Positions 5,066-63,526 of a stretch of DNA of 64,000 nucleotides are shown one piece after another. The notes under the pieces are model-generated. The model was not told the DNA's origin and made no database searches. It saw nothing but the letters and a program-made list of their open reading frames with translations. Origin of the DNA: a bacterium (GTDB lineage: Bacteria; Electryoneota; JAOADG01); the NCBI GenBank assembly GCA_963681965.1, contig OY820579.1, forward strand, positions 2,464,001 to 2,528,000, written 5' to 3'. The number at the start of each line of letters is the position of its first letter. Within the stretch, counting starts at the first letter, position 1. The position numbers and the translations under genes are program-made.

Positions 5066-5110
5066 CGAAATAAATGCTAAAATAAACGTAAAAGAAAGCA
5101 GATAGAGTGG

Positions 5111-6816: not shown

Positions 6817-7194
6817 ATGTTATCGAATTTATTCTGGATATACCTGATCAATCTGATTCTGCTGATTGTTCATGAAATCGATTCCGCCTATTGGCAAGAG
6901 TGGAAACTGTTTCATTTGCCGGGCGGTATTCAAGCGTTTGTGCTGTTGCATATCCCCTTGCTGTTCATCTTGCTGCTCGGTTTGATCGGAGTGTATGAAC
7001 GGTGGCAAATCGGATTGGTACTATCATTTGCCGAGGCGATTGCGGGCATTGCAGCTTTCGCGATCCATCAATGGTTTTTGCATAAAGGGCATTCGGAATT
7101 CAATAATTCTGTTTCGCGCGGTGTGTTGTGGTTATTGCTCATTGTATCGCTGGGGCAGATCGCAATGACATCGACGATGCTGCAAAGATACTAG
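6817..7194 (+). CDS. Small integral membrane protein (HEIDSAYWxEW motif family)
   Basis: Four hydrophobic helices, AGGAG RBS. Confidence 0.75.
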   Translation: MLSNLFWIYLINLILLIVHEIDSAYWQEWKLFHLPGGIQAFVLLHIPLLFILLLGLIGVYERWQIGLVLSFAEAIAGIAAFAIHQWFLHKGHSEFNNSVSRGVLWLLLIVSLGQIAMTSTMLQRY

Positions 7195-7267
7195 TGTGGG
7201 AAATGTAAGTGAAAATGAAAACGTGACCCGATCGAGTCCCGTTCGATGTATGCAAGATGGTGTATGA

Positions 7268-7882: not shown

Positions 7883-8315
7883 GAATGACTCCTGTGAAGA
7901 TAGATGAACAGATTAACAGCCATCGAAAGTAACGAGAGAATTCGAACAACTCAACGATTGAAATCAAAATTGCTAATTTGAGTAGCGCGATTGCGACAAC
8001 TACGCTGCCGATGGACTGCGGTTGTAGGTAATTTTACACGAATCTTTACTGGTGGAATGCTGCGATTTCGAGCAAATTCAGGGAGGCGAGGCTTCTTACA
8101 CGAAGCAGGAAATGAGTGAATTTCGTTTTGATCTCATCGGAATCTTTCAATCTCTTGTTTATAGGTAACGTATTATCTTGCGATTATGTCCATATTTTCA
8201 CAAACTTTGCTGTATTTTCAAGTCTTTTCGCTACTTTGTCGCATTAAGCAAATTGGCAAAACCAGTTCGGAAAGTAGTATATTAATGTCTGTTTCTAGAA
8301 CGAAGTAGCCAATCC

Positions 8316-9200: not shown

Positions 9201-9275
9201 CCGGCACCCGTTGAAATTATCCAACATATTCTATCAGTTACGAACCTGAAAAGCAGGTTCATCTCGGAGGATAGC

Positions 9276-34944: not shown

Positions 34945-35451
34945 TTGCGAATAGAAATCATACGAGAGATCGACAAGGTACGCACCATGACCGTTAAGGC
35001 ATTGCGGGAAAAGTATCTGGAGGTATTTGGGGAAACTACCCGCTCTGGAAACAAGGACTTTCTCTGGAAGCGGATAGCCTGGCGGATACAGGCCATCGAG
35101 GAAGGCGATTTATCGGAACGGGCGCGACGTCGCGCCGAGGAACTGGCATCCGATGCTGACTTACGAGTTCGCACCCCATCTAGCGCCCTGGCGGAACCTG
35201 TCGCGTTGAACGCGGGCATTACTGCTACGTATGCGTTTCAAGTAACTACCGACCAGCGTGTACCCATACCCGGGACAATGCTTACCCGTCAGTACAAAGG
35301 AACAACGATCCGGGTAATGGTACTGGCGAAAGGCTTTGAATACAACGGGAAGCTGTATCGCACATTGACTTCCATCTCGAAAGAAATTACCGGTTCCCGC
35401 TGGAACGGTTTTCACTTCTTTGGATTGCAGAAGGAAGGAGTTGCCGCATGA
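34945..35451 (+). CDS. DUF2924 domain protein
   Basis: LREKYLEVFG...KRIAWRIQ...PGTMLTRQYKG...YRTLTSISKEITGSRWNGFHFFGL; TTG start after GGGAGG. Confidence 0.85.
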   Translation: MRIEIIREIDKVRTMTVKALREKYLEVFGETTRSGNKDFLWKRIAWRIQAIEEGDLSERARRRAEELASDADLRVRTPSSALAEPVALNAGITATYAFQVTTDQRVPIPGTMLTRQYKGTTIRVMVLAKGFEYNGKLYRTLTSISKEITGSRWNGFHFFGLQKEGVAA

Positions 35452-37028
35452 GACAGCGTAGTCAATTATCTCAGCCACCAGCTAGCGATACCAAAAAGCC
35501 GATCCGATGTGCCATCTATACCCGTAAGTCGACTGAGGAGGGGCTTGAGCAGGAATTCAACTCGCTGGATGCGCAACGGGAATCGGCGGAAGCATTTATT
35601 GCGAGCCAGAAAAATGAGGGTTGGGTCTGCTTGCCGGAGAAATACGACGATGGCGGATTCACCGGTGGTAACATGGAACGGCCCGCCTTGAAGAGATTGC
35701 TGGCACAGGCGGAAGCAGGCAATATCAATTGTATTGTAGTATACAAGGTTGATCGCCTCTCCCGCTCCCTGATGGACTTTGCTCGAATCATGGAGATCCT
35801 CGAACGTCAGCACATTTCTTTTGTCTCTGTTACTCAGCAGTTCAATACGACTCATTCGATGGGACGACTGACCCTCAACATTCTGCTCTCTTTCGCACAG
35901 TTCGAGCGCGAGATCATTTCCGAGCGCACCCGTGATAAAATGAGTGCTGCCCGCAAGAAAGGGATGTGGATGGGCGGTATTCCGGTGCTTGGATATGATA
36001 TCCATCCGCAAAACAGAAAGCTGGTCGTCAATCCGGAGGAAGCGCTTCGCGTAAAGGAAGCCTTCAGTTTATACCTTGATCACGAATCTTTGCTCGCTAC
36101 TGCACAGGAGTTGAACCATCGAGGTTGGACGACAAAACAGTGGACTACAAAGAGTGGAATCGCAAAGGGTGGATTGGCATTTGAAAAGGTCAATTTGTTT
36201 CGGTTGCTGACAAATCTGACTTACATCGGGAAGTTGGAGTACAAGGGGGAACTATACGAAGGTGAGCATGAAGCAATCGTTGAATCGGATGTTTGGAATC
36301 GAGTCCAGGCACTTTTACATCGCAACGGCAAGAGTGGTGGTGTAGAGGTCCGGAACAAGTTCGGTTCTTTACTCAGAGGCATCTTGTTTTGTGACTCTTG
36401 CCATGCTGCAATGGTGCATACGTACACTGCAAGAAAAGAGTGCAAGATCTACCGGTATTACGTTTGCTCGAAAGCGCAGCACAGGGGCTGGCACACTTGT
36501 CCCACCAAATCGCTTCCCGCCGGTGAGATTGAGCAATTTGTAGTGAATCGGATTCGCTCCATTGGTAGTGATCGGGGACTGATAACAGAGACACTCAACC
36601 AAGCGAGACAACTGGTTCAAAGTGATATTACGAAATTGGAAAACGAGCTTACCGTTGTACAACACCAGTTGGAATATCTTGGTGCGGAAGTTCCAAAGGT
36701 GCTCTCCTCGCGAAATGGTTCGAGACGAAGTGTTACGCAAACAGACCCTTCCGAATTGGAAGAAAAGATTCGAATAGCTCGTCAACGAGCAGAAGAGTTG
36801 TCGGCTGAGATCGCATTACGAAAAAACGATTGGATCACTGAGAGTGATATTGAGACTGCACTTGGAACCTTTGATCCAATGTGGGAAGCAATGAATGCGA
36901 AAGAGCGTACCAAGTTAATTCATCTGCTGGTTGAGCGTGTTGGCTATGAAGGGTCCGCTGGAAAATTGAGTATCACATTCCGGCCGAGTGGAATCAAATC
37001 ACTGGGTCAGGAATCATTCGCAGCATAA
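35448..37028 (+). CDS. Large serine recombinase (integrase)
   Basis: CAIYTRKS catalytic Ser, DRLSRS, FAQFERE, recombinase domain, Zn ribbon CDSC...YYVC...C, coiled coil. Confidence 0.95.
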   Translation: MRQRSQLSQPPASDTKKPIRCAIYTRKSTEEGLEQEFNSLDAQRESAEAFIASQKNEGWVCLPEKYDDGGFTGGNMERPALKRLLAQAEAGNINCIVVYKVDRLSRSLMDFARIMEILERQHISFVSVTQQFNTTHSMGRLTLNILLSFAQFEREIISERTRDKMSAARKKGMWMGGIPVLGYDIHPQNRKLVVNPEEALRVKEAFSLYLDHESLLATAQELNHRGWTTKQWTTKSGIAKGGLAFEKVNLFRLLTNLTYIGKLEYKGELYEGEHEAIVESDVWNRVQALLHRNGKSGGVEVRNKFGSLLRGILFCDSCHAAMVHTYTARKECKIYRYYVCSKAQHRGWHTCPTKSLPAGEIEQFVVNRIRSIGSDRGLITETLNQARQLVQSDITKLENELTVVQHQLEYLGAEVPKVLSSRNGSRRSVTQTDPSELEEKIRIARQRAEELSAEIALRKNDWITESDIETALGTFDPMWEAMNAKERTKLIHLLVERVGYEGSAGKLSITFRPSGIKSLGQESFAA

Positions 37029-43683: not shown

Positions 43684-43880
43684 CCCGATTTTCCGAAGTG
43701 ATTAGTATCGAGCTATCTCCGGATGAAGCTGATGCATTGTTACTCATTCTGAATGAGGCGCGACAAGAATTGTCACTTCCAGTTGATGCAGTCGTGTACA
43801 GGAACATAATGGAAAAGTTGGGAAGTATTCATGGAGAGCGATCTAATGAAATCCAAAGCAAAGTCACAATCAAACAGTGA
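43680..43880 (+). CDS. Small hypothetical protein
   Basis: ATGA overlap with the upstream gene; GGAG RBS. Confidence 0.55.
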   Translation: MTRFSEVISIELSPDEADALLLILNEARQELSLPVDAVVYRNIMEKLGSIHGERSNEIQSKVTIKQ

Positions 43881-46074
43881 ATTGGAACGTCGAAGTGGAT
43901 TCGTTGAGACGGTATTCTATACCAACCCGTCTTATACCACCGGTCGCTTTCACGATGATGATGGTAAATCATTTTCATTTGCTGGCTCAATTCGGATAGT
44001 CGAGAATGAGCCAGTTGTTCTGTTTGGAAAATTTACCATCCATCCTAAGTATGGACGACAGTTTACCGTTGATCGCTTTGAGTATGACTTTCATCCTTCG
44101 GTGGAAGGATTGACCGTCTATCTCGCAAATCATCCTGATATCAAAGGCATCGGCCCGGTAAAAGCAAATAGTATTGCCAGGCATTTTAACGATCACTTTG
44201 AAGCAACTCTGCTTGAGCATCCTGAAGTTATAGCGGAATACGCACAGGTGCCGTTCAGCGCTATTCAACAGTTACAAGCGATATGGACTAAGAACCGTTC
44301 AGAAAACGCCGCTGCTACCTACCTGTCGCAGTATGGGCTCACACACTTTCAGGTTAAAACGTTGCTCGATGAATTTGGCAATAATGTCATCGCACTGTTC
44401 AAAGAAAATCCCTATCAGGTTATCGCTGCTCTTCGTGGATTCGGCTTTAAAAATATTGACATGATTGCCCGCAAAATGGGAGTTCAAAAGGCTTCTCCCG
44501 ACCGCATTCGCGCCGGATTGGTGCACGCAGTTAATGAACAGGTAGATGCTGGACACTGTTGGGTTTCATTCGATGATCTGGTAGAACATGCCAATGAATT
44601 ATTGATTCTCGATACCCTTGATAGTCATGATCAGATCGTTCGTGAGTTGGAGTACTTGCTCGAAGCGAAACAGTTGGTCGAGATGGATACGGATGACCAG
44701 CGTATCGTTGCTCGTCCGGATTTGTATGCAAAAGAAAGAGAACTGACTTATTGGTTTGCCGAGAACAAAGGGGGAAATCCACACTTTCCATCACTGATGC
44801 CATTAGAAGGTATGAACTTGGATTATGCAGAAACGATGAATGAAGGTCAGCTTTCTGCGTTACTAGCAGCAACACATCATCAGATTTCGGTTATCGCAGG
44901 TGGTGCAGGAAGTGGTAAAACCTTTACCGTTGCAGTGATTACGAAAATACTCGAACAGACAGGCTTGAAAGTGACTCTTGCTGCTCCTACCGGTAAAGCA
45001 GCGAAACGACTCGAACAGATGATCGATCACGAGGCGGTCACTTTGCATCGGTTGCTTGGATACAATGGACGCTTTTTTTCAGCTTGTCCAGAGATGCCCA
45101 TCGATACTGATGTGCTGATTGTTGACGAATTCTCGATGGTTGATGTCCCGCTTGCTTGGCAAATGCTCAGCGCTATCGATTGGGATCGTACAGCCATCAT
45201 TTTGGTTGGAGATCCGAATCAGTTACCTCCAGTCGGACCCGGTAACATCCTGCGCGACCTACTGTCAACGAAATTGGTTAAAACCACTGTTCTGGATCGA
45301 ATTGTACGACAAGCAGGACTTCTTAAAGAGAATTGTACAGCAATTCTATCCGGTGAAGTGCGTAAAACTGCTCCTGAAGTTACCGGTCAAACCCGTAAAC
45401 CTTGGTTTATGATCGATCAATTCACCGATATGGAACATGTACGTCAGTTCTTGTTGGAAATGTACACAAAATTACTTTCCGAACGGCTCGGTTTCGATCT
45501 CTTGCGAGATGTGCAACTCATTACACCAACCAAAAAGGGTCCACTCGGTACAGTTGAGCTAAATACTGTTCTACAGCAATTACTCCAGAAAAAGCTCTTC
45601 AATGTTGATGTCACTCCTCCAAAGGTTGGACAACAGCAACGCCGTTTCTATCGGCACGACAAAGTCATCCAGACCCGCAATAATTATGACACCAATGTGA
45701 TGAACGGTTCCATTGGATGGGTGCTGGACAACGACCCCAAGGGCGGTCTTACAGTTGAGTTCGAGAATGGTACTGTGACTGTTATTGAGCAAGGATCGCA
45801 TGAACTTTCGGAATTGTCACTCGCCTATGCACTTACGGTTCACAAAGTTCAGGGTTCAGAATTTCCATGCGTGATTGCTGTGATTCACAAACTGCACACC
45901 TTTATGCACCATCGAAATCTATTCTACACCGCAGTAACTCGTGCCCGCGAAACCGCCATTGTCATAGGCGACCGATGGGGGTTAAAAAATTGTGCTCGGA
46001 TCGTTCAAACCGAGCGGCGACGCACTTTTCTTTCCTTGATTAAAACAAGTCAACCTTCAAAGGTCGCTGTATGA
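43846..46074 (+). CDS. recD2: RecD2-like SF1B helicase
   Basis: HPKYGRQF, IKGIGP HhH, GGAGSGKT, VDEFSM, GDPNQLPPVGPG, AYALTVHKVQGSEF, YTAVTRA. Confidence 0.92.
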   Translation: MKSKAKSQSNSELERRSGFVETVFYTNPSYTTGRFHDDDGKSFSFAGSIRIVENEPVVLFGKFTIHPKYGRQFTVDRFEYDFHPSVEGLTVYLANHPDIKGIGPVKANSIARHFNDHFEATLLEHPEVIAEYAQVPFSAIQQLQAIWTKNRSENAAATYLSQYGLTHFQVKTLLDEFGNNVIALFKENPYQVIAALRGFGFKNIDMIARKMGVQKASPDRIRAGLVHAVNEQVDAGHCWVSFDDLVEHANELLILDTLDSHDQIVRELEYLLEAKQLVEMDTDDQRIVARPDLYAKERELTYWFAENKGGNPHFPSLMPLEGMNLDYAETMNEGQLSALLAATHHQISVIAGGAGSGKTFTVAVITKILEQTGLKVTLAAPTGKAAKRLEQMIDHEAVTLHRLLGYNGRFFSACPEMPIDTDVLIVDEFSMVDVPLAWQMLSAIDWDRTAIILVGDPNQLPPVGPGNILRDLLSTKLVKTTVLDRIVRQAGLLKENCTAILSGEVRKTAPEVTGQTRKPWFMIDQFTDMEHVRQFLLEMYTKLLSERLGFDLLRDVQLITPTKKGPLGTVELNTVLQQLLQKKLFNVDVTPPKVGQQQRRFYRHDKVIQTRNNYDTNVMNGSIGWVLDNDPKGGLTVEFENGTVTVIEQGSHELSELSLAYALTVHKVQGSEFPCVIAVIHKLHTFMHHRNLFYTAVTRARETAIVIGDRWGLKNCARIVQTERRRTFLSLIKTSQPSKVAV

Positions 46075-48773
46075 TCGATCCCCGGGTTGAACTGCTGCAA
46101 CATTACTTTTTCTCGCGCACTGACAAAGTTGCGTTCTTTGCTTCGTGGGAAAAACCGCAACCAACGCCAGGCGGCGAACTGCTGCCTGCATTGTTGGATG
46201 CGCATATTCGCGGCAGTAAGGCACCTTGGGTAGAAGTCACATTCACCAATCAGAAAGGAAGTGGCTCGAATAAAGGTCGTTTCCGAATTGGATCATACAC
46301 ACCGACTCAAGACGGGTTAACGAAATGGCTATGTATCGATTTTGATGGCGGTCCAGGTCACGCGAATGGACTAATCGACCCGAAAGCTGCAGTCATTGAA
46401 GCATATAAAACTGCATCAAGTCTTGGCATTACCTCACACATCGAATGTTCCGGCGGTGGTCAAGGGTGGCATCTTTGGGTATTCTTCGATCCAATGGTTT
46501 CTGCGAAACAAACCCGAGAATTGGGTTTACTGGTTTGTCCCCGGGACCAACGCTGTCAAAATGGTGAGATGGGTGATCCACTTTCTAATCGTGGACTTGA
46601 GATTTTTCCTAAGCAACCTAAGATAAAATCCAGTGGATTTGGTAATCTCGTCTGGCTCCCCTGGTGGTGGAATGCTGCTGAGGGTGGTAATGAATTTTAT
46701 CAATTCGATGAATCAGATGTGCTTGTTCGTTATCAACCGGAGTCCTTCTCTACGGTAACACCCGAACAACTCACTCAGACAATTGCTGCGCATGTTCGAA
46801 TTGCACCAGAATCGGCACCGACACGTCGAAACACACGGTCAACACAGCTGCCACACACCCCGAAATCGAACAGTTCCGCTTGGGATGAATGGCGCTCGAA
46901 AGCATTATCGAAACTGCCGTTGGAAACAATCTATGGTGACTATTTAACCGGTGGTCATTCGAGTCCTGATTGGCTCGAGTGCCGCGATCCGGCATCGGCT
47001 TCCGGTGATCAGAATCCATCCGCAGGTGTTTCTACCGGAACAGGATCGGTCGAGCGTGGATCATTCCACTCATTTCTCACCGGTGAAACGATCTCGATTT
47101 TCGATTTTCTGATTCGAATCGGAAAGGCATCAGACTTCATTTCAGCTCGCGAAATCGTTACCAGTCTTTCCGGTGTAGCACCATTTGTAGAATCATCTAC
47201 ATTGCATTCTTCACTTCCAGAAATTGCTGTTAACAATCGGCAGCTTTCTAATATTGTAGATGATGCTTGGAATGCAATTCACCATTGGAACAAACCACCT
47301 AAAATGTTCCAACGAGGTGGTACTCTCGTTCGTTTGCAAAAGTCTCAACTATCCGAGCGTTACCAGCTTGAAGTGATTAATGAACCGGCCGCCTATGGTA
47401 CACTCTTCCGGACCGCGCGATGGATAAAACATGTGGATGGAAACGTCACGGATGCACATCCTCCGCATGATATCGCTAAGGATTTACTCTGTAATGTAGA
47501 CCCAAAACTTCCACCCATTGAAGCGGTAATTCATACACCGGTTTTCGGTCGTGATGGGACACTACTTACAACCTCAGGCTACTGCCCTAACGATTCGCTT
47601 TGGTTGCAGTTACCAGATCAATTATCTCATCTGGAAATTCCCCAGCATCCATCTTCACAACAAATTGTTGATGCAGTTTCCCTGTTAACGAATGAGTTAC
47701 TGGTCGACTTTCCATTTGTGTCCGATTCCGACCGTACCCATGCAATTGCAGCGATGATACTTCCATTTGTTCGTCCGATGATTACTGGTTGCACACCACT
47801 TCATCTAATCGAAGCGCCAGTCGCCGGTTCAGGTAAGGGACTGCTTTGCAACATTATTTCGATCATTACTTCCGGCTATTCTGTTCCATCGCGAACACTT
47901 CCAAATGACGATGATGAACTGCGAAAAATGATCACTTCGGAGTTACTGAAGGGTAACCCAATTGTCCTACTCGATAATGCCGATGAACGGAAGCGCCTCA
48001 ACTCGCCAACCTTGGCATCGGTGTTAACCGCTGAATACTGGACAGATCGATTTCTCGGATCATCCAAAATGGTGACGATGCAAAATCTTCCATTGTGGCT
48101 GCTCACTGGAAACAACGTACGCATGTCGCAAGAATTGATTCGTCGCGTCTTGCGTTCCCGATTTGATACCCGTGTTGAACAACCCTGGCTTCGCGAAAAC
48201 TTCCGCCATGATGATTTGCGGGAATGGACACGTGAGCATCGTCCAGAGCTGGTGGCGGCCATTCTCACAATCATTCAGACTTGGATTAATGCCGGTAAGC
48301 CAGCAGGTAAAAAGAAACTTGGTTCCTACGAAGAGTGGTCAAAAGTGATTGGTGGAGTTCTATCTGTTGCTGGTATTCCCGGTTTTCTCGGAAATCTGGA
48401 GGCTCTGTATGATTCCTCTGACCCTGATCGTGACATGTGGCGTGAACTTGTAGCTGCCTGGTGGGAAGAATGGCGTGAAACCCCGGTCAAAGTTTCCGAC
48501 TTGAATGAATTCTGTGAACGGACGGAATTATTAAATGGACTACGCGGTGATGGCACCCCTCGTTCGCAACAAACAAAACTTGGCACCGCAATTCGCCGCA
48601 TAGTCGACCGGGTATTTCTGAACTATCGGGTAGAGCAATCGAAGGATTGGAAAGTCACCAATGGAAAAACGATTGCCTACAAGTTGGTCGAATTGCCTCA
48701 AAATGGTGCTGCAGAAATTAATGGCGAATCTGAACCCAAGATTGACCTTAGCAACTTCGATTGGGATGAATGA
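46071..48773 (+). CDS. AEP-type primase fused to a P-loop helicase-like domain
   Basis: WLCIDFD, SGGGQGWHLWVFF, EIFPKQ, GNLVWLP; C-terminal APVAGSGKG and VLLDN. Confidence 0.82.
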   Translation: MIDPRVELLQHYFFSRTDKVAFFASWEKPQPTPGGELLPALLDAHIRGSKAPWVEVTFTNQKGSGSNKGRFRIGSYTPTQDGLTKWLCIDFDGGPGHANGLIDPKAAVIEAYKTASSLGITSHIECSGGGQGWHLWVFFDPMVSAKQTRELGLLVCPRDQRCQNGEMGDPLSNRGLEIFPKQPKIKSSGFGNLVWLPWWWNAAEGGNEFYQFDESDVLVRYQPESFSTVTPEQLTQTIAAHVRIAPESAPTRRNTRSTQLPHTPKSNSSAWDEWRSKALSKLPLETIYGDYLTGGHSSPDWLECRDPASASGDQNPSAGVSTGTGSVERGSFHSFLTGETISIFDFLIRIGKASDFISAREIVTSLSGVAPFVESSTLHSSLPEIAVNNRQLSNIVDDAWNAIHHWNKPPKMFQRGGTLVRLQKSQLSERYQLEVINEPAAYGTLFRTARWIKHVDGNVTDAHPPHDIAKDLLCNVDPKLPPIEAVIHTPVFGRDGTLLTTSGYCPNDSLWLQLPDQLSHLEIPQHPSSQQIVDAVSLLTNELLVDFPFVSDSDRTHAIAAMILPFVRPMITGCTPLHLIEAPVAGSGKGLLCNIISIITSGYSVPSRTLPNDDDELRKMITSELLKGNPIVLLDNADERKRLNSPTLASVLTAEYWTDRFLGSSKMVTMQNLPLWLLTGNNVRMSQELIRRVLRSRFDTRVEQPWLRENFRHDDLREWTREHRPELVAAILTIIQTWINAGKPAGKKKLGSYEEWSKVIGGVLSVAGIPGFLGNLEALYDSSDPDRDMWRELVAAWWEEWRETPVKVSDLNEFCERTELLNGLRGDGTPRSQQTKLGTAIRRIVDRVFLNYRVEQSKDWKVTNGKTIAYKLVELPQNGAAEINGESEPKIDLSNFDWDE

Positions 48774-48840: not shown

Positions 48841-49136
48841 CCCGAACCTCCGAACCTAGCCGAACCTTCGATTTTGAGGTTCGGGGAACCGGAAAAGCTT
48901 TATCAGAGCGGCTTCAAAGACTTTACCCGAACCTCCGATCCTATGGCTATAGTCAACGTACGTGCGCACGCACGCGCATACGCATGCACACGCGCATGTG
49001 AGTGTAAGGGTACCAAAAAGGTTCGGGTAGGTTCGGAGGTTCGGGTAAGCTTTCTTCAACTCTATGAAAATAATGAAGATGAAATTTCAAAAACTACCCG
49101 AACCTCATGATGCTAGGTTCGGGTGAGGTTCGGGGT
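48841..49136. repeat. Putative replication origin: CCGAACC/GGTTCGG iterons flanking an alternating purine-pyrimidine tract
   Basis: About a dozen CCGAACC(T) or (A)GGTTCGG copies in both orientations around CGTACGTGCGCACGCACGCGCATACGCATGCACACGCGCATGTG, directly after the primase-helicase. Confidence 0.7.
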
Positions 49137-49175
49137 ACGAATAATCAATCAGTTGATTCAATTGTGGGTAGCATT

Positions 49176-49682
49176 ATGCAATTCGGACTATTTCAAACCG
49201 CTGAGCAATACGACCTCTATGTCGCCATCGATCTGACAACAAAGTCGATGCCGGTATCTGGTAGCACTTCAGCCGAAATCTTGGAAGGGACAAAAACCTT
49301 CCGTCGGCTGGATGCAACGTATCTGCTTTGGCTGGAAAGCCGAGTTGCCAATATCGAATCTGCTTATCGCAAAGGAAAAGCGTCCGTTGGACTATACAAA
49401 ACGGTTCAGCAGCGCTTCGTCGATGTTCAAAAGTGGGCAAGAAATAACATAGATGCTGCCATTCTCGATGCATTGCGCAAAAACTTCGATCCGAAATCAT
49501 ATAGTCCGCCGGTGTCGGAACCTACACCACCAGTGACAGAAAGCTGGTCAGATAATATGCGCGAAGCTTTTGAGGAACGAGCTGCAATCATGGAATACGA
49601 TGGTGGAATGACCCGTGCCGAAGCAGAACGTGCAGCCGAACGAACCGTACGAAATGCTTTTCAACCTGTAATGGGAAGATAG
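49176..49682 (+). CDS. Phage hypothetical protein
   Basis: C-terminal FEERAAIMEYDGGMTRAEAE motif common in phage proteins. Confidence 0.65.
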   Translation: MQFGLFQTAEQYDLYVAIDLTTKSMPVSGSTSAEILEGTKTFRRLDATYLLWLESRVANIESAYRKGKASVGLYKTVQQRFVDVQKWARNNIDAAILDALRKNFDPKSYSPPVSEPTPPVTESWSDNMREAFEERAAIMEYDGGMTRAEAERAAERTVRNAFQPVMGR

Positions 49683-49688
49683 AATACA

Positions 49689-50348
49689 ATGACGAAACCC
49701 AGTAAAATCAATACTTCCGTGCGAAACGACCGCGCAAACAAGCCCGCGCTACCGGCTCCAGTTCCGAATTTGCAAGTAAGCGTAAACGAGAAACAGACGC
49801 TGAACGGTGCTGCGATCTGTGGTGTGGTTTCGAAGAAAGGAAACGAGTGCAGCCGAGCAGCGATGGCGAACGGTCGCTGCCGTTTTCATGGCGGGAAACT
49901 GTCCGGAGTAATGATGGCTCGCCCCGGAAATCGCAATGCAGTCAAGCATGGTGCATTTCTGCCTGATATCCAGGACGAACGCGAACAGAATGCGTTCGAT
50001 CTGTTCTTGTCCGATCTTTACGAAGTCTTCCCGGATCTGAACAAAGCGAGCGATCTCCGACATGCTCAGCTGGCTGCCATTACCTATATCCGTTTGCTAC
50101 GTGCGCTTTGGGGCGAAGCTTCAAGCTCTACGATAGACGATCTCTCCCGAGCGTTCACGCGGCACCTTGCGGCAATACGGGTAAACCGTGACCAACGGGT
50201 GAGCGAGACCGATGCCCACGCAGGTCCGAGATCGCCTGCCGAATATGCGGTTGAGATCATTCAGCAGGTTCGGATGTATTCGAAGGGTGGTGCTTCTCCA
50301 GTTTCAATCGATCCCGTTTTGCTCGGGTTGGACGTAGAAAATGACTGA
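49689..50348 (+). CDS. HGGxSTG-domain protein, probable terminase small subunit
   Basis: CG....G..C...AMANGRCRFHGG...GNRNAVKHG. Confidence 0.8.
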   Translation: MTKPSKINTSVRNDRANKPALPAPVPNLQVSVNEKQTLNGAAICGVVSKKGNECSRAAMANGRCRFHGGKLSGVMMARPGNRNAVKHGAFLPDIQDEREQNAFDLFLSDLYEVFPDLNKASDLRHAQLAAITYIRLLRALWGEASSSTIDDLSRAFTRHLAAIRVNRDQRVSETDAHAGPRSPAEYAVEIIQQVRMYSKGGASPVSIDPVLLGLDVEND

Positions 50349-50480
50349 GATGCTTCAGGGGCTAAAGTGTCATAATTCTATCGCTTGTGATTTCAAAGCG
50401 ATAGAAATGAATGATTCTAATCTGGATTATAATAATCAGGATTATAATCTTTCAGCACGCAGGCATGACATGCAGGCAGG

Positions 50481-50738
50481 TCAAGCATCGAGGTCGTCAA
50501 GCCCATCTCCGATTGTGCACTCCCATTCCTTACCGACCTGTTCGATCAAATCGGAATGTAAACGCAGCGATTCTGCAAACTCTTTTTGTCGTGCTTCGTG
50601 TACTACGTTCACCAATGCTTCCCTGCAAAATGCGGCAAGGGATATTCCTTTTGACCTTGCCATCTTCTGTGCAGCCACTTTTAGTTCCAGCGGAACCGTG
50701 ATCGTCATTCGAACCATGCGTTCTGATATTTTTGCCAT
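50481..50738 (-). CDS. Ribbon-helix-helix antitoxin-like protein (orphan)
   Basis: RMTITVPLELK..AQKMA...GISLAAFCREAL; acidic EWECTIGDGLD tail; AGGAG RBS. Confidence 0.7.
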   Translation of the reverse strand: MAKISERMVRMTITVPLELKVAAQKMARSKGISLAAFCREALVNVVHEARQKEFAESLRLHSDLIEQVGKEWECTIGDGLDDLDA

Positions 50739-51321
50739 GTTTACTCCTGGGTTAGATCGCCACAGAATGCGTCTCCCGAATTGCCAAATCAAGTGTCGCC
50801 AGAAAAACGGAAAATACCCATCGCAGACCATCGCAAATTCGTTACGAGAAATCGCGACTTACGATCTAACTCGTGAGAATATCAGCAGGGAATCGGTATT
50901 CTGCGATTGTACCTCGGGCGGGGTGGCAGCTGCGTCGTCTTGGAATTCTGTTCAAATTCCGACGTGTGTCTGCTGTGTCCAGAACGTGTCAGAAGGTCGC
51001 TCTGATCGAAAATACAAAGACTTAGTAGATTTGCTGGTATGTCACGCTGGCGAATGTGTTCAAACGGCAGGGGTGGATTATGGAAATAGTTATGGATCAA
51101 ACTGCATAACTCGCAACAATTCAAAGGTTTGGCGATCTGTTCGAATATGTTCTGTCACCGTAGTGAAGTTTCGTTGGCCCAAGTTCTGGATCTTTCAATC
51201 GCAACCGCGAAACGCAACCGGCAAAGCTCGAAGCGAAAAACGCAGGGTAGCCCCAAAGGGGGTGTCTGGCAGGGTATTAGGGTCAAAATTCCGAATCAAC
51301 AGTGAAACTCTGGCTCGAAAC

Positions 51322-51501
51322 TCATTTGGCGAGCTTCTTCAAAGTTGCATCTTGCTCACCCATCAACCGTTTGGTTGCGATAGCAACTTTCTTCCGGTGG
51401 CGTTTCCGTTCAGGTTTCACCACCAGATCAGTATTGCTATTTGCTGGAATTTCTTCGACAGCACTGAGACGTTTCGATTTCAATGTTCGCCGATTATTCA
51501 T
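51322..51501 (-). CDS. 59-aa antitoxin-like protein (Doc-partner-like C-terminus), below the ORF-track cutoff
   Basis: MNNRRTLKSK...ATKRLMGEQDATLKKLAK*; AAGGGA RBS; its stop overlaps ATG of a 9-codon stub MSFEPEFHC*. Confidence 0.5.
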   Translation of the reverse strand: MNNRRTLKSKRLSAVEEIPANSNTDLVVKPERKRHRKKVAIATKRLMGEQDATLKKLAK

Positions 51502-51600
51502 GGTAGTCCCTTACACGAAAATTCCTGCAATTTTGCATTTCAAATGCAAATATACAGGCTTACTCAATGTGAATACAGAATTCAAAGCAAGAGTAATCAT

Positions 51601-52509
51601 CTAGTTAAATCTGGCTGTTCGGCTTTCCATCGCTTCTTCGAACGACTCGTCGGTTATATGAGCATAAATCTGCGTATGGACGATGCTGCGATGTCCGAGC
51701 GCCTTCTGTACAACCAGAATATCGTGGTTCTTAGCATACAGCGAAGTGGCAAAGGTGTGCCGGAGTTTGTGGGGAGTGACTTGCTTCAGGATGCCTGCTC
51801 GTTTTACCCACTTCGACACGACGATTTGAAAGCCTCTGCTCACCATTCGACCGTATTGCTGGTTTACGAAAAGAGCATTCACGTTGCTGTCAGTTGCGAA
51901 GTGTTTTCGTTCACCTTGGATGTACTGATCTATGGCATCGCGAGTGATCGATGGAAGAAATTTGCGAATGGGGTTGCCACCTTTTGCTCGCTTGATGAAA
52001 AGATGTTTATCGGAGATATCAGCCAGTTCGATCTGTGCCAGCTCACCTACCCGGATTCCGGTATCGAGCAACACCCGGATGATCGCGTAGTCCCGTTGCT
52101 GATGAATATTGCGCGGGTAATCTCGCAGACAATCGAGCAGTTGCTTCTCCTCAGCTTCATTGAGGTAGGTCGGCGGCAACGGCTCAACATGTTTGATCTG
52201 CACGTGTTCCGCCGGGTTATCGGGAATATGACCATTTCGCTTTGCCCAGAGGAAAAACGATCGCAGTGCAGCCTTCATTCGGTTAATGGTATTCGCGTGT
52301 TTCATCGAGCCATCGGATTTGGTAGCGAACAATACGACAAAGCTGTCAATATCGCCGCTGGTAACGTTCTTGATAGTGGATATACCGGTAGCAGCAAAGA
52401 ACTCGAAGCAATGACCAAGGTCAGCAGTGAAGTTCTTGATAGTATGAGGCGACTTACTCTGAGCCAGCAAGTACGTCCGGTAGTCGACAATCAGTTGCTC
52501 AAAGCTCAC
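51601..52509 (-). CDS. XerC/D-like tyrosine recombinase
   Basis: SAM-like N-domain; full catalytic set GIRVGEL, AKGG, HKLRH, LGH, TQIY. Confidence 0.93.
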   Translation of the reverse strand: MSFEQLIVDYRTYLLAQSKSPHTIKNFTADLGHCFEFFAATGISTIKNVTSGDIDSFVVLFATKSDGSMKHANTINRMKAALRSFFLWAKRNGHIPDNPAEHVQIKHVEPLPPTYLNEAEEKQLLDCLRDYPRNIHQQRDYAIIRVLLDTGIRVGELAQIELADISDKHLFIKRAKGGNPIRKFLPSITRDAIDQYIQGERKHFATDSNVNALFVNQQYGRMVSRGFQIVVSKWVKRAGILKQVTPHKLRHTFATSLYAKNHDILVVQKALGHRSIVHTQIYAHITDESFEEAMESRTARFN

Positions 52510-52715
52510 TGTTCATCCTCCTCGATGGTGAACCATGTCCAGTTTGTGGCATGGCGGAACCACACTTCCAATCGTTGTCCTACGAACTCCGTCAGATCGA
52601 GGCACATTCGGAAATCGCCATACAATACAAGTTCTTTGCCATTGTCTCGTAAAAAATTGAATTGCAGTATCGATCCTTCTTGGGAAAAAGACTGCAGGGT
52701 TGCGAAACACTCCAT
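52506..52715 (-). CDS. Hypothetical protein
   Basis: AAGGAGG RBS; stop overlaps the recombinase GTG. Confidence 0.6.
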   Translation of the reverse strand: MECFATLQSFSQEGSILQFNFLRDNGKELVLYGDFRMCLDLTEFVGQRLEVWFRHATNWTWFTIEEDEQ

Positions 52716-52725
52716 TGTATCCTCC

Positions 52726-52998
52726 TTATCGTTTCAAACCGGCGACTTTACCGTCTTCGCCGAGGGTCAAGTTCGAGAAATAACCAGAGCGCAATCTCTT
52801 CCACTCACTCTTGGCGTGGTAACTAGGGACGTTTTCAAAGACGATTTTCACTTCGTAGCGGACCGCTACTCGGGAAAGTTTGAAGCGGTAAAATCGCGGT
52901 TTCCCATCGGCACCAGGGAAAGAGTTTTGCAGGTGCCCGTAACTGTCAAGTTTCCAGCCTTTGCTCTGTGCCCAGTCAATGAATTGTTCTCTGGTCAT
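52726..52998 (-). CDS. Hypothetical protein
   Basis: AGGAG RBS, ATGA overlap; MTREQFIDWAQSKGWKLDSYGHLQ. Confidence 0.7.
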   Translation of the reverse strand: MTREQFIDWAQSKGWKLDSYGHLQNSFPGADGKPRFYRFKLSRVAVRYEVKIVFENVPSYHAKSEWKRLRSGYFSNLTLGEDGKVAGLKR

Positions 52999-53297
52999 TG
53001 GTTATCTCCTGTGGTGATGGGTTCTAACTCTTCGCGTCGCACTTCGACCTGTACAAACGATCCGGTAAAGCCAATCTCAATCGCGAAATACAACGCGGGG
53101 TCTGGTGTACCGGGTGCGATTAGCAGTTGGGGGTATTGATCGATGTTGTATCTGGTTAAAAAAAGATTGGCTTCGGGATCGCTTGGTTCCGGTTGGTTCA
53201 TAAAGAAGCCGGTAATCTCGGCATTACGCGGGTGGGTCAAGTATCTCACTTGCTGTCCAAGCCTGTACTGGATTGGGTTTGCGGGTTGTGCTGGCAT
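52995..53297 (-). CDS. Hypothetical protein
   Basis: AAGGAG RBS; first gene of the minus-strand operon. Confidence 0.65.
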   Translation of the reverse strand: MPAQPANPIQYRLGQQVRYLTHPRNAEITGFFMNQPEPSDPEANLFLTRYNIDQYPQLLIAPGTPDPALYFAIEIGFTGSFVQVEVRREELEPITTGDNQ

Positions 53298-53375
53298 GAT
53301 GTCTCCTTCGTTTTTGGTGTGGACACATTACAGTCCCTGTGGCGGGAAAGCAAGTCTGGATAAGGGTTTCGGGAT

Positions 53376-54950
53376 ATGAGTGGAAGTGTAAAGAAAGCAA
53401 AGGCTTCGCAGGGCGCATCCGTCGCAATTCCATCGGGATTAGCCAGTGTTTTTACCGTTCTGGTCGATCCTGCGGTATGGGGGGAGCACTACCTCAAGAA
53501 CCCGGATGGAACGAGGCGTAGCTACTGGCAGCATCAATACAGCGACTTACGGTCACCGGCAAAACAGATTATCCATCAGGATGGTCGCGAGGTCGGCAAA
53601 ACAATCGTGTTAACTACTCTGGTGCTGCATTACGGATTTACGACTCATAATGGTTCGGGCTTGGTGGCAACCCCGCATCAAGGACATCTCGAAACAATTA
53701 TCGATGAGATCGAGCAGCAGATTTTCAACAATCCAACGCTGCTGGCAAGTGTCGCAAAAAACCGTTATGGCAATCCCGACATCAGCCAGAAACCGTATTA
53801 CCGCATCCGGTTCTCGACCGGGACAGTAATCCATTTCCGGCAGGCGGGCGATTCCGGTCAACCATTTCGGTCGTTGCATGTCGACCGGGTCTGGGTCGAT
53901 GAGGCAGCCTGGATGACTGAGCGGTCTTGGAAAGCACTTCGGCGTTGTCTGAATGAGGCAGGTGTGTTTCGGATTTATTCGACACCGAATGGTCTACGCG
54001 ACACCACTTACTACCGGTTAACGCAGGATAAAAATAAACGGTGGCAGGTGGTGCGATGGCCATCGTCACTGCATCCCAACTGGACCGTAGCTCGCGAAAA
54101 AGAACTGATGGAATTCTATGGTGGTCGCGATACCTCCGGTTTCCAGCATGAGGTATTAGGGGAACATGGCAGTCCAACGTACTCGGCATTCCCAGTTGAT
54201 TCGATTCGCATTGCATTGACTGACATCCCGGAATACCAACGCGTGATTCTCACCGGTAATGAATTATCCGATTGCGAAACTGAGGATGCGATTCGGGCGA
54301 GACTCGATATGCTTGTCGGTCTGACTCCACAAAAAGGGAAGTTTTGGCTCGGTGGCGACCTCGGTTATACATCCGATCCATGCGAATTATTGGTGTGGCA
54401 GGAAGATGAAACCGGCAAGTTGTCACTGGTCTACCGGTTACATGCCGAGCATGTCGCCTATCCGATTATCGCGGAGCTGATTGCGGTGATGGATGATTAT
54501 TTCGGATTTGTAGGACTCGGTGTTGACGAAGGTGGTAATGGACTGGCGGTTGTTCAGGAACTGACCACACTCGACAAGTTTTCCGATGCGCGTTTCTCCG
54601 ACCGTTTACTTGGTTTCAACTTCGGAAGTTCGACTGTGATCGGATATACCGACGAAGGGAAGCAACGAAAAAAGCGCACCAAGGAGTTGATGACGAGTCT
54701 GATTAATGGTCGACTGTCGCAACGAACGATTCGTTTTCCCAACGACGATCCTGAAATCGAGGATCAGTTTACCACTCACACCTACAGCATGTCCGAAGGA
54801 AAGATCATCTATTCCAAGGGACGCGACCACATTATCGATGCAACGCGCTGCGCGATGCTGCGGGTGTATCTGGAAGAAATCAAAGAACTGAGGCCGGAAG
54901 TCGAAGAGGCAGCCTTAATGCCGCTTACCACTGATCCGTTATTTACGTGA
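53376..54950 (+). CDS. terL: Terminase large subunit
   Basis: GREVGKT Walker A, WVDEAA Walker B, YSTPNG, GGDLG nuclease, DHIIDA. Confidence 0.9.
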   Translation: MSGSVKKAKASQGASVAIPSGLASVFTVLVDPAVWGEHYLKNPDGTRRSYWQHQYSDLRSPAKQIIHQDGREVGKTIVLTTLVLHYGFTTHNGSGLVATPHQGHLETIIDEIEQQIFNNPTLLASVAKNRYGNPDISQKPYYRIRFSTGTVIHFRQAGDSGQPFRSLHVDRVWVDEAAWMTERSWKALRRCLNEAGVFRIYSTPNGLRDTTYYRLTQDKNKRWQVVRWPSSLHPNWTVAREKELMEFYGGRDTSGFQHEVLGEHGSPTYSAFPVDSIRIALTDIPEYQRVILTGNELSDCETEDAIRARLDMLVGLTPQKGKFWLGGDLGYTSDPCELLVWQEDETGKLSLVYRLHAEHVAYPIIAELIAVMDDYFGFVGLGVDEGGNGLAVVQELTTLDKFSDARFSDRLLGFNFGSSTVIGYTDEGKQRKKRTKELMTSLINGRLSQRTIRFPNDDPEIEDQFTTHTYSMSEGKIIYSKGRDHIIDATRCAMLRVYLEEIKELRPEVEEAALMPLTTDPLFT

Positions 54951-54958
54951 GGATTCCA

Positions 54959-56398
54959 ATGAAACTATGGCCGTTTACTACTGCACCAAAACCGATGGAA
55001 ACAACCACGATCACGATTCTCGATGATTCGATGGGTGCTGCCGCCGATATCTCCGGAACATTTTCGTCGGAATACACTGTGCAAGGGATTCCGACCATCT
55101 GGGAGGAACGCGGCAAGCTCGCCTGGCAATACTACACCGAGGAACCGATTGTCAACAACGCGATCAATGCCTGGCGTACGTTCGCTATCGGTGATGAGAT
55201 ACAGGTGACTTCCGATGATGAAGAAACCCGTAAAGCCGCACGTGATCTGTTCAAGCGACTAGCGTTGAATGACTTCGTTCGCGACATGATCCTGCAATTG
55301 CTGGTCAAAGGCGAATGCATGGGTTACAAGACCTACGGTGGACAGAAAAAGAAAACCGTTGGCGGTAAGGAAGGATATTCCGAGATCGAACAGATCTGGT
55401 GTCTGAATCCGGTTTCGGTTCAGTTCCAACTGGATAAGGGCGAGATCGTAAAGATTATTCAGAAAACCGAAGATGCTGTTGGCATTACCTCCGGTAGTGA
55501 GATCGAACTCAATTCCGGACAGTTCTATCACCAGAAATGGAACAGTCCCCAGTTTAACTCGCGTGGCAACTCGATGGTACTCCCGGCATTCGAGTCGATT
55601 GAGCTGATGCGCGACTACCGGCGTGCCGAGCGTGCCATCGCCAAGCGGTGGACGACTCCGCTTCGTTTTATCACGGTTGGTGGCAAGTTCGGTGATAAGG
55701 TAGTAATGCCGACGCAGAAGATGCTGCAGCAGGTGCGCGATACGATCAATAAAATGGATTTAAAGTCGGGTATGGTCGTTCCGTTCTATGTCGATGTGAA
55801 AACCTACGGCGCCGAAGGAATTGTTCTCAATACCGAAGAGAAAGTCAAAGAGATCAAATCCGATATCGTTGTTGCCCTCGGTTTTGTCAAATCACTGATT
55901 ACCGGTGAGGGTCCCAACTTTGCCACCGCCAGTGTCGGTTTCTCCAAAGTTATTCTGATGCTGAAGGAGATCAAGCAGATTGCTCGCGACGTGTTGACCT
56001 GGATTTTCGACGACTGGAAGGAATTGAACGGCTGGCAGGACAAACACATCGACTTCATTTTTTCCGATATCGATCTCACCAATGAAGATGGTCAGAAGAA
56101 GATGCTGGTCGAGCTGTATGATCGGAAAATCATCTCCATCGATACGCTACAATCGAAGTTGGGTCTGCGCCCCGAAGTGGAGGCTGCCAATCAAGTCGAG
56201 GAGCGGAAGAGTACCATCGATTCCCTCACGATCAAGGACATCGCGACTCTGATCGCATCAGGAGTGGTCTCGGTGCAGACCGTACAGGAACATCTCGGAC
56301 TTGATCCTGTTACCGAGGATAAAAACATGAAACAATCCGATGCGCAGAGTGTAGCAGACATTTATGCATCGGTTGATTTGCCGGATGTTCTCCAATGA
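54959..56398 (+). CDS. Phage portal protein
   Basis: Position between terL and MuF; ~480 aa; LNPVSV, RGNSMVLPAF, NFATASV. Confidence 0.8.
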   Translation: MKLWPFTTAPKPMETTTITILDDSMGAAADISGTFSSEYTVQGIPTIWEERGKLAWQYYTEEPIVNNAINAWRTFAIGDEIQVTSDDEETRKAARDLFKRLALNDFVRDMILQLLVKGECMGYKTYGGQKKKTVGGKEGYSEIEQIWCLNPVSVQFQLDKGEIVKIIQKTEDAVGITSGSEIELNSGQFYHQKWNSPQFNSRGNSMVLPAFESIELMRDYRRAERAIAKRWTTPLRFITVGGKFGDKVVMPTQKMLQQVRDTINKMDLKSGMVVPFYVDVKTYGAEGIVLNTEEKVKEIKSDIVVALGFVKSLITGEGPNFATASVGFSKVILMLKEIKQIARDVLTWIFDDWKELNGWQDKHIDFIFSDIDLTNEDGQKKMLVELYDRKIISIDTLQSKLGLRPEVEAANQVEERKSTIDSLTIKDIATLIASGVVSVQTVQEHLGLDPVTEDKNMKQSDAQSVADIYASVDLPDVLQ

Positions 56399-62555: not shown

Positions 62556-63011
62556 TTAATGTGATAATTGACGAGCGTTGTGTCTTGTAGATTGGGAATT
62601 GCTTTTAGACCTCGTCCCAACAGCGCTTGATCGTTTCTTACCCGAACTTGTTTCGAACAAGTATGAAACTGGAATGCCCAATCCTTCGTGGATAGCGCTG
62701 ATCATTTTCTTGCTAAGTTCGCGCTTGCCAGATAGCACTTCATACACTCGTGTTCTTGTCCCAATGAATGGAATGAGATCCTTGTTGGTTAATCCCTGTT
62801 GTTCCATCACGAATCGGATCATTTCAATCGGGGAAACTTTCAAATCTCTCATTGAGCTGTGCGCATCGTCGAAGTGTTGCATTAGAACAGCAATTAACTC
62901 AATCTCATTTGCTTCGGGTGAATTAGGTTGCGGATCGAGCGCAATCAAGCTGTCCATCTCGTTGAGAGCAGCCTGGTAATCTTCCGCAGTTTTAATTAGT
63001 TTCAGTTCCAT
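62556..63011 (-). CDS. higA: HigA-type antitoxin (HTH-XRE)
   Basis: IKTAEDYQAAL, PIEMIRFVMEQQGL...RVYEVLSGKRELS..MI..IHEGLGIP. Confidence 0.88.
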   Translation of the reverse strand: MELKLIKTAEDYQAALNEMDSLIALDPQPNSPEANEIELIAVLMQHFDDAHSSMRDLKVSPIEMIRFVMEQQGLTNKDLIPFIGTRTRVYEVLSGKRELSKKMISAIHEGLGIPVSYLFETSSGKKRSSAVGTRSKSNSQSTRHNARQLSH

Positions 63012-63019
63012 AGTTTCCC

Positions 63020-63307
63020 CTATCCTAACCTAAGTTTATCATACTCCGCGTGCGTTCCAATCCAAACGACTCGCACGACACCAGCAACATACACTACCTG
63101 TACTACCAACCGATGCTTGTTTCCACGTATGTTAAATATGACACGGTTATCGTGTAGGAAACTAGCAGTCGCGAACCTAAGCTTAATATCATGAGTGGTT
63201 TTCCACTCTGCTTCGGTTATCAGCATAACCCACGCTTTCAAAGCAATGGCTACGTCAGCATGAGATCGGCAATAGTCGTCGATTAGTTTCCGGTTTGCGA
63301 TTAACAT
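63020..63307 (-). CDS. higB: HigB-type toxin (mRNA interferase)
   Basis: RVIFNIRGNKHRLV, WIGTHAEYDK; upstream of higA. Confidence 0.9.
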   Translation of the reverse strand: MLIANRKLIDDYCRSHADVAIALKAWVMLITEAEWKTTHDIKLRFATASFLHDNRVIFNIRGNKHRLVVQVVYVAGVVRVVWIGTHAEYDKLRLG

Positions 63308-63396: not shown

Positions 63397-63425
63397 TTGA
63401 CAGAGAGTTCCGGTTTTCGTAAATT
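63397..63425 (+). promoter_or_regulatory. Sigma70 promoter
   Basis: TTGACA-17 bp-TAAATT. Confidence 0.65.
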
Positions 63426-63482
63426 GATTGTGACATTATTCGCCCCATAAGGGGAAAGCGCTGGTAGCGGGAAACACCCAAC

Positions 63483-63526
63483 CCGGCATCATACTTCTGA
63501 GGAAGAGGTATGGTGCCGGTTTTTTT
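63483..63526 (+). terminator. Intrinsic terminator in the leader of the methylase gene
   Basis: CCGGCATCATAC...GTATGGTGCCGG + T7. Confidence 0.75.

Follow-up and report, generated by a model that had tools for sequence, protein, structure and literature searches.

A nearly stop-free plus-strand frame between terS and terL of a prophage, opposite an antisense recombinase module, as a possible translated spacer

Why should a plus-strand reading frame remain open over 1013 codons when the DNA beneath it is occupied by a whole module of genes on the opposite strand? This question is raised by a prophage in a stretch of 64,000 nucleotides (nt) from a bacterium of the phylum Electryoneota (GTDB lineage JAOADG01; NCBI GenBank assembly GCA_963681965.1, contig OY820579.1, positions 2,464,001 to 2,528,000 of the forward strand), hereafter the window, with positions counted from its first letter. 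Its packaging genes, a putative terS and terL, are separated by an antisense module that includes a XerC-like tyrosine recombinase (Table 1), and one plus-strand frame, which we call the bridge, leads from the one packaging gene to the other as two consecutive open reading frames (ORFs).

The ATG of the bridge sits 5 nt ahead of the terS TGA and thereby overlaps the terS stop (ATGACTGA). ORF 1 ends at TGA 53137-39, ORF 2 restarts 3 nt beyond at ATG 53143 (TGA-N3-ATG), and its own TGA at 53377-79 overlaps the terL ATG at 53376 (ATGA). Altogether, there are 2 stops in the 1013 codons of the bridge frame vs. 41 and 48 in the other two plus frames, the lone internal stop (53137) falling within the 100-amino acid (aa) minus gene. 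An earlier note, made from the letters of the window alone, had described this frame at 50341-53379, and both its coordinates and its stop count were borne out when we re-derived them. That note also reported six minus genes and about 300 non-coding codons under the frame; the antisense cassette and the non-coding stretch are indeed present, but we counted seven minus ORFs (116, 80, 59, 302, 69, 90 and 100 aa), with all three registers to the bridge frame represented (Table 1), and only ~578 nt of non-coding DNA, or ~190 codons. Its figure of ~450 codons in codon-for-codon antisense register (register 0) agrees with our count of 59+302+90 = 451 codons. Likewise confirmed was its statement that the genes in this register avoid entirely the codons TTA, CTA and TCA, here called forbidden codons as they read as stops from the other strand: all three genes contain none, xerC for instance having 0 among 24 Leu and 18 Ser codons.

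Is a frame of this kind expected from chance or from codon bias? In 400 replicates, in which the synonymous codons of the seven minus genes were redrawn from genome or prophage usage and the intervening DNA was shuffled, the resampled frame carried a mean of 28 stops (standard deviation 4.7, minimum 14-15), with 0/400 replicates falling below 14; xerC resampled alone contributed 7-8 stops and intergenic shuffling alone ~10. Synonymous shuffling, a check that had been proposed along with the original description, did not produce the open frame, no replicate coming near zero. For comparison, over the 563 frames of the genome with 600 codons or more, antisense stops amount to 3.1% per codon in codon-for-codon register and to 4.3-4.7% in the other registers, and TTA, CTA and TCA are all missing from the last 300 codons in only 8 of its 1777 long frames. 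Stop density is normal in the other five frames of the region. Within the module, the forbidden codons number 0 in the 451 codons of the in-register genes and 4, 3, 1 and 3 in the off-register genes, where they yield no plus stop in the bridge frame; in the plus genes of the prophage they occur at 27 per 1000 codons. Recognizing that the off-register genes use these codons and the in-register genes use none, we conclude that the avoidance tracks the plus frame rather than a codon preference. A chance or codon-bias shadow ORF was rejected as an explanation, given that the frame spans seven ORFs, three registers and the intergenic DNA between them, with resampling far off the observed count. Judging from the sequence, it is near certain that the frame has been selected to be open.

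If openness has been selected, does the product matter as well? The window genome (G000) carries a second, paralogous locus (L015; G000:C1:1256000-1270000), and comparison of the two copies gave a ratio of nonsynonymous to synonymous substitution (dN/dS) for the bridge frame of 1.26 over xerC and of 1.17 over 50778-51387. In the same two-copy comparison, dN/dS was 0.105 for xerC itself and 0.24 for the putative terS, with synonymous divergence (dS) of 0.57 for xerC and 0.28 for terS. The insertions and deletions (indels) between the copies are multiples of 3, comprising 294 nt, which removes the 116-aa ORF precisely, and 1383 nt in place of 54. Across the family, the length of the bridge ranges from 344 to 1217 codons, with indels of whole genes. 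The bridge products matched no Pfam or PHROG family, and ORF 1 found no homologue among proteins of 512-1631 aa; its language-model recognition of 882 is typical of shuffled sequence, with 91% of real families reaching 2300. As far as sequence comparison can tell, the evidence says that the peptide is unconstrained and that only the openness of the frame is preserved. The proposal of the earlier note that the frame is kept for being open or translated, and not for its product, has passed both the synonymous-shuffling and the related-prophage tests that the note had put forward.

The relatives on which the latter test draws comprise 169 terL loci, assembled from the upstream regions of the phylum genomes and from alignment-based searches of metagenome and viral contigs; single-protein locus searches alone had yielded one genome locus and no viral locus. 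Relatives of terL are found in 16/79 genomes of the phylum. An antisense xerC lies no more than 2.5 kb upstream of terL in 123 of the 128 loci for which 1500 nt or more of upstream sequence is available, and xerC is therefore a fixed, family-wide resident and not cargo. Accordingly, the idea of a cargo hotspot inside the packaging operon holds for the variable genes between terS and xerC but not for xerC. Those variable genes, all antisense to the packaging genes, include Amidoligase_2 and GGACT/AIG2 in genome G015 (locus L040; E 2e-62 and 6e-42) and AbiEii (E 7e-43 to 7e-45) with AbiEi (E 1e-12) in G019 (L041) and G061 (L042). Plus frames are found over these different contents: in G001, of the same genus as the window genome, a frame of 667-738 codons reaches the terL start; G015 has a 646-codon plus ORF over Amidoligase_2/GGACT and a 344-codon ORF over xerC; and G061 and G019 have plus ORFs of 377 and 268 codons, respectively, over AbiEii. 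The ORFs of 646, 377 and 268 codons across cargo matched no protein family. The second locus in the window genome, 83-89% identical to that in the window, has the frame open for 1046 codons, ~942 of them ahead of a deletion joint. Within that stretch, an AAA_14/DUF4143 gene (Pfam E 2e-44) has been inserted, none of whose 52 Leu and 25 Ser codons is a forbidden one. Homologues of this AAA_14 gene elsewhere contain 0-20 forbidden codons, the low ones being located in G052, and the generic shadow ORFs of that genome leave the homologue comparison suggestive and call for caution with counts across genomes. In G052 (L228; G052:C108), long antisense frames also lie over a chromosomal LeuRS gene and two AAA_14 genes. 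The check on related prophages thus found a stop-free plus frame, coupled to terS and terL, that is kept despite other cargo and without amino acid constraint, some relatives being without the frame.

Base composition has to be considered when these relatives are read. Many of them have a guanine-plus-cytosine (GC) content of 55-67%, and there a median of 0.78 of the downstream antisense strand is covered by open runs of at least 100 codons; antisense frames in GC-rich relatives are long anyway, so these relatives are uninformative either way. Removal of near-duplicates reduced the 128 loci with terL and an upstream antisense xerC to 56. Where the GC content of terL is at most 0.53, xerC has 0 forbidden codons in 10 of 14 non-redundant loci, when 3.5-10.6 are predicted from terL usage; the exceptions are L016 with 17, L126 with 7, L186 with 6 and L043 with 2. 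At a GC content of at most 0.57, the codon-for-codon frame is open over at least 90% of xerC in 16/23 loci, and the forbidden share of Leu and Ser codons in these 23 loci is 48/1196 in xerC vs. 232/1650 in terL. The longest plus run in the terS-terL interval of low-GC loci is two to five times the longest antisense run downstream (within 6 kb), as evidenced by the interval/downstream pairs of 930/166, 737/251, 567/244, 554/174, 548/181, 405/148 and 320/149, with L016 (85/104) and L186 (210/346) as exceptions; three GC-rich loci remain outstanding in run length (1130/415, 915/604 and 766/479). Tiling by ORFs of at least 30 codons was discarded as a statistic, control antisense windows already being ~85-90% covered.

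How the frame is joined to its neighbours is likewise shared with relatives. An overlap of the terS stop with the start of the bridge is found not only in the window but also in L015, L041, L042 and L184, and in L040 there is instead a 44-nt gap. At the other end, 17 of 26 non-redundant register-0 loci have the stop of the last plus ORF overlapping a terL start codon, by 1-8 nt (12 of the 17 being NTGA), a count that used the nearest in-frame start and carries no null model. The layout of long ORF, short ORF and terL recurs in L095, L197, L045 and L080, the long ORF ending within the last minus gene and the short ORF beginning at its stop; terL in these lineages is only ~55% identical to that of the window. 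Overlapping stops and starts are also found between neighbouring genes of the prophage, namely helicase/primase (46071/46074), terL/portal (54947/54950) and portal/MuF (56395/56398). No sigma-70-like plus promoter was found in 50348-53376 in a scan limited to the sigma-70 consensus; a promoter of terL's own, which the earlier note had named as evidence that would count against a bridge, was therefore not seen in sigma-70-like form ahead of the gene.

What, then, might the frame be for? We surmise, with moderate confidence and from the sequence features above, that it is a translated spacer relaying ribosomes from terS to terL, kept by purifying selection against stops alone. A translated relay to terL is the most likely function; the single plus-strand transcript, its translation and the benefit are what we infer. 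Between terS and terL lies an ancient antisense module, composed of xerC and its small partners with variable defence genes or other cargo on the terS side; in such a relay, ribosomes leaving terS would start anew at the overlapping ATG 50341 and make a meaningless peptide of 932 codons across this module. After termination and reinitiation at 53137/53143, they would meet their last stop on the ATGA with which terL begins. By this route, terL, together with portal and MuF that are chained to it by overlapping stops and starts, would stay translationally coupled to terS, and the RNA of the packaging operon would be left without a long ribosome-free stretch. Rho is present in the host (PF07497, 119.8 bits, 428-aa frame), and escape from Rho-dependent polarity is one plausible benefit among several, beside coupling, protection from pairing and protection from head-on collision. 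We put forward more tentatively, at somewhat short of an even chance, the wider notion of a 'ribosome conveyor', a kilobase-scale frame without a product that would carry ribosomes over an antisense recombinase/defence module, its openness dictating the choice of synonymous codons and codon pairs in as many as seven genes of the other strand and being re-imposed on each cargo gene as it is acquired (AbiE, amidoligase/GGACT, AAA_14). Mobile cargo would then have a new way of living head-on within an essential operon.

Several observations weigh against such a relay: 1) G003 (L016), the closest relative from another genus, has intact terS, xerC and terL, yet contains 21-30 stops per plus frame, with 17 forbidden codons in its xerC; 2) L186, L126 and L043 are also without full cover, and bridging of the cargo part is patchy in L041, L042 and L188, where chains of short ORFs leave gaps of up to 313 nt; 3) in L015 (~4768-10450), terS and the cassette are followed by an xerC that is cut at ~residue 127 and fused to a D12 methyltransferase gene at ~residue 103, with terL, portal, MuF and HigBA deleted, so this prophage is defective and its open frame is inherited, not currently needed; 4) the terL start has no occluding RNA structure (z score 0.16) and possibly a weak Shine-Dalgarno sequence, hence obligate coupling is not indicated; 5) two other antisense islands of the same prophage, HigBA and a Fic gene that lies ~14 kb past the window end among plus structural genes, are unbridged, their plus frames holding 12-24 stops with longest runs of 135-138 codons, so that there is no support for a general requirement that antisense stretches be translated; and 6) no sigma-70-like promoter was found after the Fic island. 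To these have to be added the uninformative GC-rich relatives and the way in which terL overlaps were counted, both described above. Counted on the other side, the HigBA island is followed by a plus promoter-like site, TTGACA-17-TAAATT (63397-63425). Some 60 nt after this site, the ATG of the next plus gene, a D12 methyltransferase fusion of 841 aa, is buried in a 16-bp hairpin that has a T7 run (63483-63519). In sequence, this layout (63397-63519) resembles a late promoter with an antitermination-controlled terminator. It is speculation on our part that the Fic island would need no ribosomes if the downstream operon in which it lies is antiterminated.

The unbridged islands also bear on a different proposal, which we consider unlikely while taking it seriously, that the frame is kept translatable for some other translation-linked reason and neither feeds terL nor stops Rho. 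It may take three forms: a) ribosomes on the plus RNA block its pairing with the xerC-operon mRNA and cleavage of the double-stranded RNA; b) an RNA polymerase backed by ribosomes pushes through head-on transcription; or c) translation shuts the recombinase module during lytic growth. Like the relay, this proposal accommodates frame-specific openness without constraint on a product. The feature being tied to the xerC module, unbridged HigBA and Fic fit a module-specific reason better than they fit generic polarity. Moreover, the minus operon is provided with a strong Shine-Dalgarno sequence, and only the 78 nt ahead of terL are left to accommodate its promoter, with the consequence that two transcription units must collide. 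However, it does not explain why, in many lineages, the frame is joined so tightly to the stop of terS at one end and to the start of terL at the other, nor why bridging extends to cargo beyond the xerC transcription unit in G000, G001 and G015.

Could the bridge instead be a genuine overlapping gene with a functional product, e.g. a packaging or accessory protein that is disordered or evolves fast? In favour are the length of the frame, a start and a stop positioned as in any gene of an operon, and its conservation across the family; antisense overlapping genes have been reported in E. coli (PMC9927249, PMC5810103); and tblastn finds the antisense-of-xerC peptide in relatives at 25-31% identity. 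That degree of similarity, however, is what codon-for-codon antisense of a conserved gene gives alone, and a functional product is difficult to reconcile with dN/dS of 1.17-1.26 in the bridge frame, with synonymous divergence in xerC that is not reduced (0.57 vs. 0.28 in terS), or with a length of 344-1217 codons into which AAA_14, AbiEii and amidoligase genes have been inserted and from which 98 codons have been cleanly deleted in one copy. Having in addition no family, no homologue and low language-model recognition, the bridge is in our view improbable as a protein-coding gene of this sort.

We hold it very improbable that the frame has no function, either as a codon-bias shadow ORF or as the decaying relic of a GC-rich ancestor. 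Shadow ORFs over single genes are indeed present in this genome (61 pairs overlapping by at least 600 nt among frames of at least 300 codons) and are the rule in GC-rich relatives and in G052, and a GC-rich origin could have let the bridge arise free of cost. The largest antisense frame pair in the genome overlaps by 2115 nt (G000 3737850-3740999), and a full-length pair lies inside the window at 9276-10571 (plus) and 9375-10568 (minus). Nonetheless, the region has a GC content of 48%, like that of the host (4.24 Mb, 47.4%), with normal stop density in its other five frames; seven genes in three registers as well as intergenic DNA are crossed, and resampling never came close; HigBA and Fic in the same prophage show normal stop density; and xerC copies at dS 0.57 or saturated are still stop-free in 10/14 low-GC lineages.

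That the cassette is invertible or excisable, with the arrangement seen being one state and the open frame incidental, is hardly to be credited despite the tyrosine recombinase, palindrome (51524-51558) and conserved element (51204-51295) inside the segment: good flanking inverted or direct repeats are absent (the best pair being 24 nt at 75%), contigs of four public runs gave only known variants of the paralogous locus, the lone 'goes back 470' joint had a 33-nt side and came from a single run, the orientation is the same in 123/128 loci, and inversion would in any case leave stop avoidance in the seen orientation unexplained.

Returning to the translated spacer as the preferred reading, we examined the genes and DNA elements that it would traverse. 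The 302-aa minus gene is, from its domain content, XerC/XerD-like, with both the catalytic domain (the PF00589 match spans positions 2-171 of 172) and the N-terminal SAM-like domain (Phage_int_SAM_1, PF02899, E 2e-12) present. Upstream of it in the minus operon, the 69-aa gene has tblastn relatives in L017, L041 and L045 (E 5e-17 to 2e-7) and no Pfam family, the 90-aa gene has tblastn relatives in 20 loci, and the 100-aa gene, which overlaps the 90-aa gene by 4 nt, has a relative in L016 (63% identity, E 5e-33). The 4-nt overlaps at 100 aa/90 aa and at 69 aa/xerC are those expected of a genuine minus operon. On the terS side of xerC, the 59-aa ORF is missing from the corresponding place in the G001 and G003 relatives; the 80-aa ORF has 83% aa identity in L015 with dN/dS of 0.54 and no Pfam or PHROG family; and the 116-aa ORF, absent in the paralogous locus as described above, matches PHROG 582 at E 1.4e-3 and Pfam CopG/CcdA only at E 0.05-0.07. 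The conserved DNA element at 51204-51295, through which the bridge frame runs open, is 78-90% identical in all four close relatives vs. 66-72% for the neighbouring xerC, and sits at the xerC 3' end in three of the four, including G001 and G003. A role as one-way terminator of the xerC operon was rejected, its fold being no better than that of shuffles (z score 0.67); it may be a binding site for the recombinase or for another protein. In the AT-rich gap between xerC and the 59-aa ORF, there is an imperfect 17-nt palindrome (CCTGCAATTTTGCATTT c AAATGCAAATATACAGG; 51524-51558), across which the bridge frame is also open and which could be a lox/dif-like site or an operator. Rfam gave no match anywhere in 49600-53500.

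The prophage that surrounds the bridge is read almost wholly from the plus strand in the window. Direct and inverted repeats of the AGGTTCGGGT type are found at 49019-49144, in a 334-nt gap ahead of the 191-aa ORF and terS, and are a candidate regulatory or pac-type site heading the packaging operon. Near-identical DNA was absent from the phage and E. coli collections, and among cultured phages the closest terL match has only 29% identity.

Table 1. Features of the prophage and of the antisense module, in window coordinates unless a genome coordinate is given. Register is that of a minus ORF to the bridge frame.
Feature	Coordinates	Strand	Register	Remarks
Large serine recombinase (integrase)	35448-37028	+		
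PD-(D/E)XK nuclease, then AAA_24	between serine recombinase and RecD2-like helicase	+		
RecD2-like helicase	43831-46074	+		
AEP primase	46071-48773	+		
191-aa ORF	between AEP primase and terS	+		
Putative terS, 219 aa	49689-50348	+		weak PHROG terS matches, E 5.6e-4; position upstream of terL
Bridge ORF 1, 932 codons without stop	50341-53139	+		antisense to seven genes and ~190 non-coding codons
116-aa ORF	50481-50831	-	2	cargo part; weak Arc/CopG-like matches
80-aa ORF	50882-51124	-	1	cargo part; coding status uncertain
Conserved DNA element, ~60-90 nt	51204-51295	no strand		core GGGTAGCCCCAAAGGGGGT
59-aa ORF	51322-51501	-	0	flanked by xerC and the conserved element
XerC-like tyrosine recombinase, 302 aa	51601-52509	-	0	Pfam Phage_integrase (PF00589), E 2e-35
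69-aa gene	52506-52715	-	2	stop overlaps xerC start by 4 nt
90-aa gene	52726-52998	-	0	PHROG 22564, function unknown, E 1.8e-4
100-aa gene	52995-53297	-	2	first gene of minus operon; Shine-Dalgarno GAAGGAGA
Bridge ORF 2, 78 codons	53143-53379	+		same frame as ORF 1
terL, 524 aa	53376-54950	+		Pfam Terminase_6N, E 2e-5; PHROG terL, E 2e-24
Portal	54947-56398	+		
MuF fusion, 1437 aa	directly after portal	+		
HigA-like helix-turn-helix gene	62556-63011			antisense island
HigB toxin	63020-63307			antisense island; Pfam E 3e-25
Fic/DOC gene, C-terminal winged helix	G000:C1:2541779-2542789 (L230:1280-2290)	-		Pfam Fic, E 4e-15

How does a bridge of this kind compare with known systems? Its junctions are those of ATGA-type translational coupling, with ATGACTGA at terS, ATGA at terL and TGA-N3-ATG internally. 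However, ordinary coupling joins two functional genes directly, whereas the bridge is a middle gene of 344-1217 codons that has no selected product and faces as many as seven genes on the other strand. Processive antitermination (lambda N/Q, RfaH, put RNA) lets long operons escape polarity, and it addresses the same problem, namely the passage of polymerase through untranslated or foreign DNA, but it acts on RNA polymerase, in contrast to the bridge which would act through ribosomes. With antisense overlapping genes and shadow ORFs, the bridge shares a long ORF opposite annotated genes, mostly in codon-for-codon register; shadow ORFs, however, concern one gene and are predicted by codon usage, neither of which applies to the bridge, and for the proposed overlapping genes functional peptides are claimed, unlike a frame with dN/dS of ~1.2. 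Leader and upstream ORFs that block Rho, for example the upstream ORF of topAI-yjhQ (PMC12121999) and those treated in a review (PMC12360218), are akin to the bridge in that the proposed benefit comes from the act of translation and not from the peptide, in a host that has Rho. Such ORFs are tens of codons long, lie in 5' leaders and serve as sensors; the bridge lies in the interior of an operon, would be constitutive in its design, reaches up to a hundred times their length and runs opposite to genes of the other strand. The nearest published oddity that we found is the ShiLan insert (PMC11855218), in which an HNH gene lies out of frame while the frame of a phage methylase stays open across it, i.e. 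a mobile insert that keeps a reading frame stop-free while encoding its own protein in another frame. As described there, it lies on the same strand, inside one gene, and is read as part of the host protein; the insert beneath the bridge, on the other hand, is antisense, lies between two genes, comprises several genes and is read across as a separate ORF.

In the main texts of the open-access papers searched, we found no account of any phage operon in which antisense genes are bridged by a stop-free frame, and none of the systems compared here unites kilobase length, a product free of constraint, overlap with several antisense genes and persistence throughout a phage family that has diverged. 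We see a substantial chance that the bridge represents a new class of genetic element. If this is true, the implications would be as follows: 1) selection would keep a frame of 1-3.6 kb open purely for the sake of translation and thereby constrain codon choice on the opposite strand; 2) gene finders and studies of overlapping genes would have to reckon with a new category, i.e. frames that are open and translated without coding for a function; 3) the locus would offer a clean natural system for transcription-translation coupling, in which stop codons that leave the proteins of the other strand unchanged would be predicted to abolish TerL; 4) a ribosome-based answer to operon polarity would stand alongside antitermination factors; and 5) for the phage family itself, the head-on position of defence and toxin-antitoxin cargo within the packaging operon would be accounted for.

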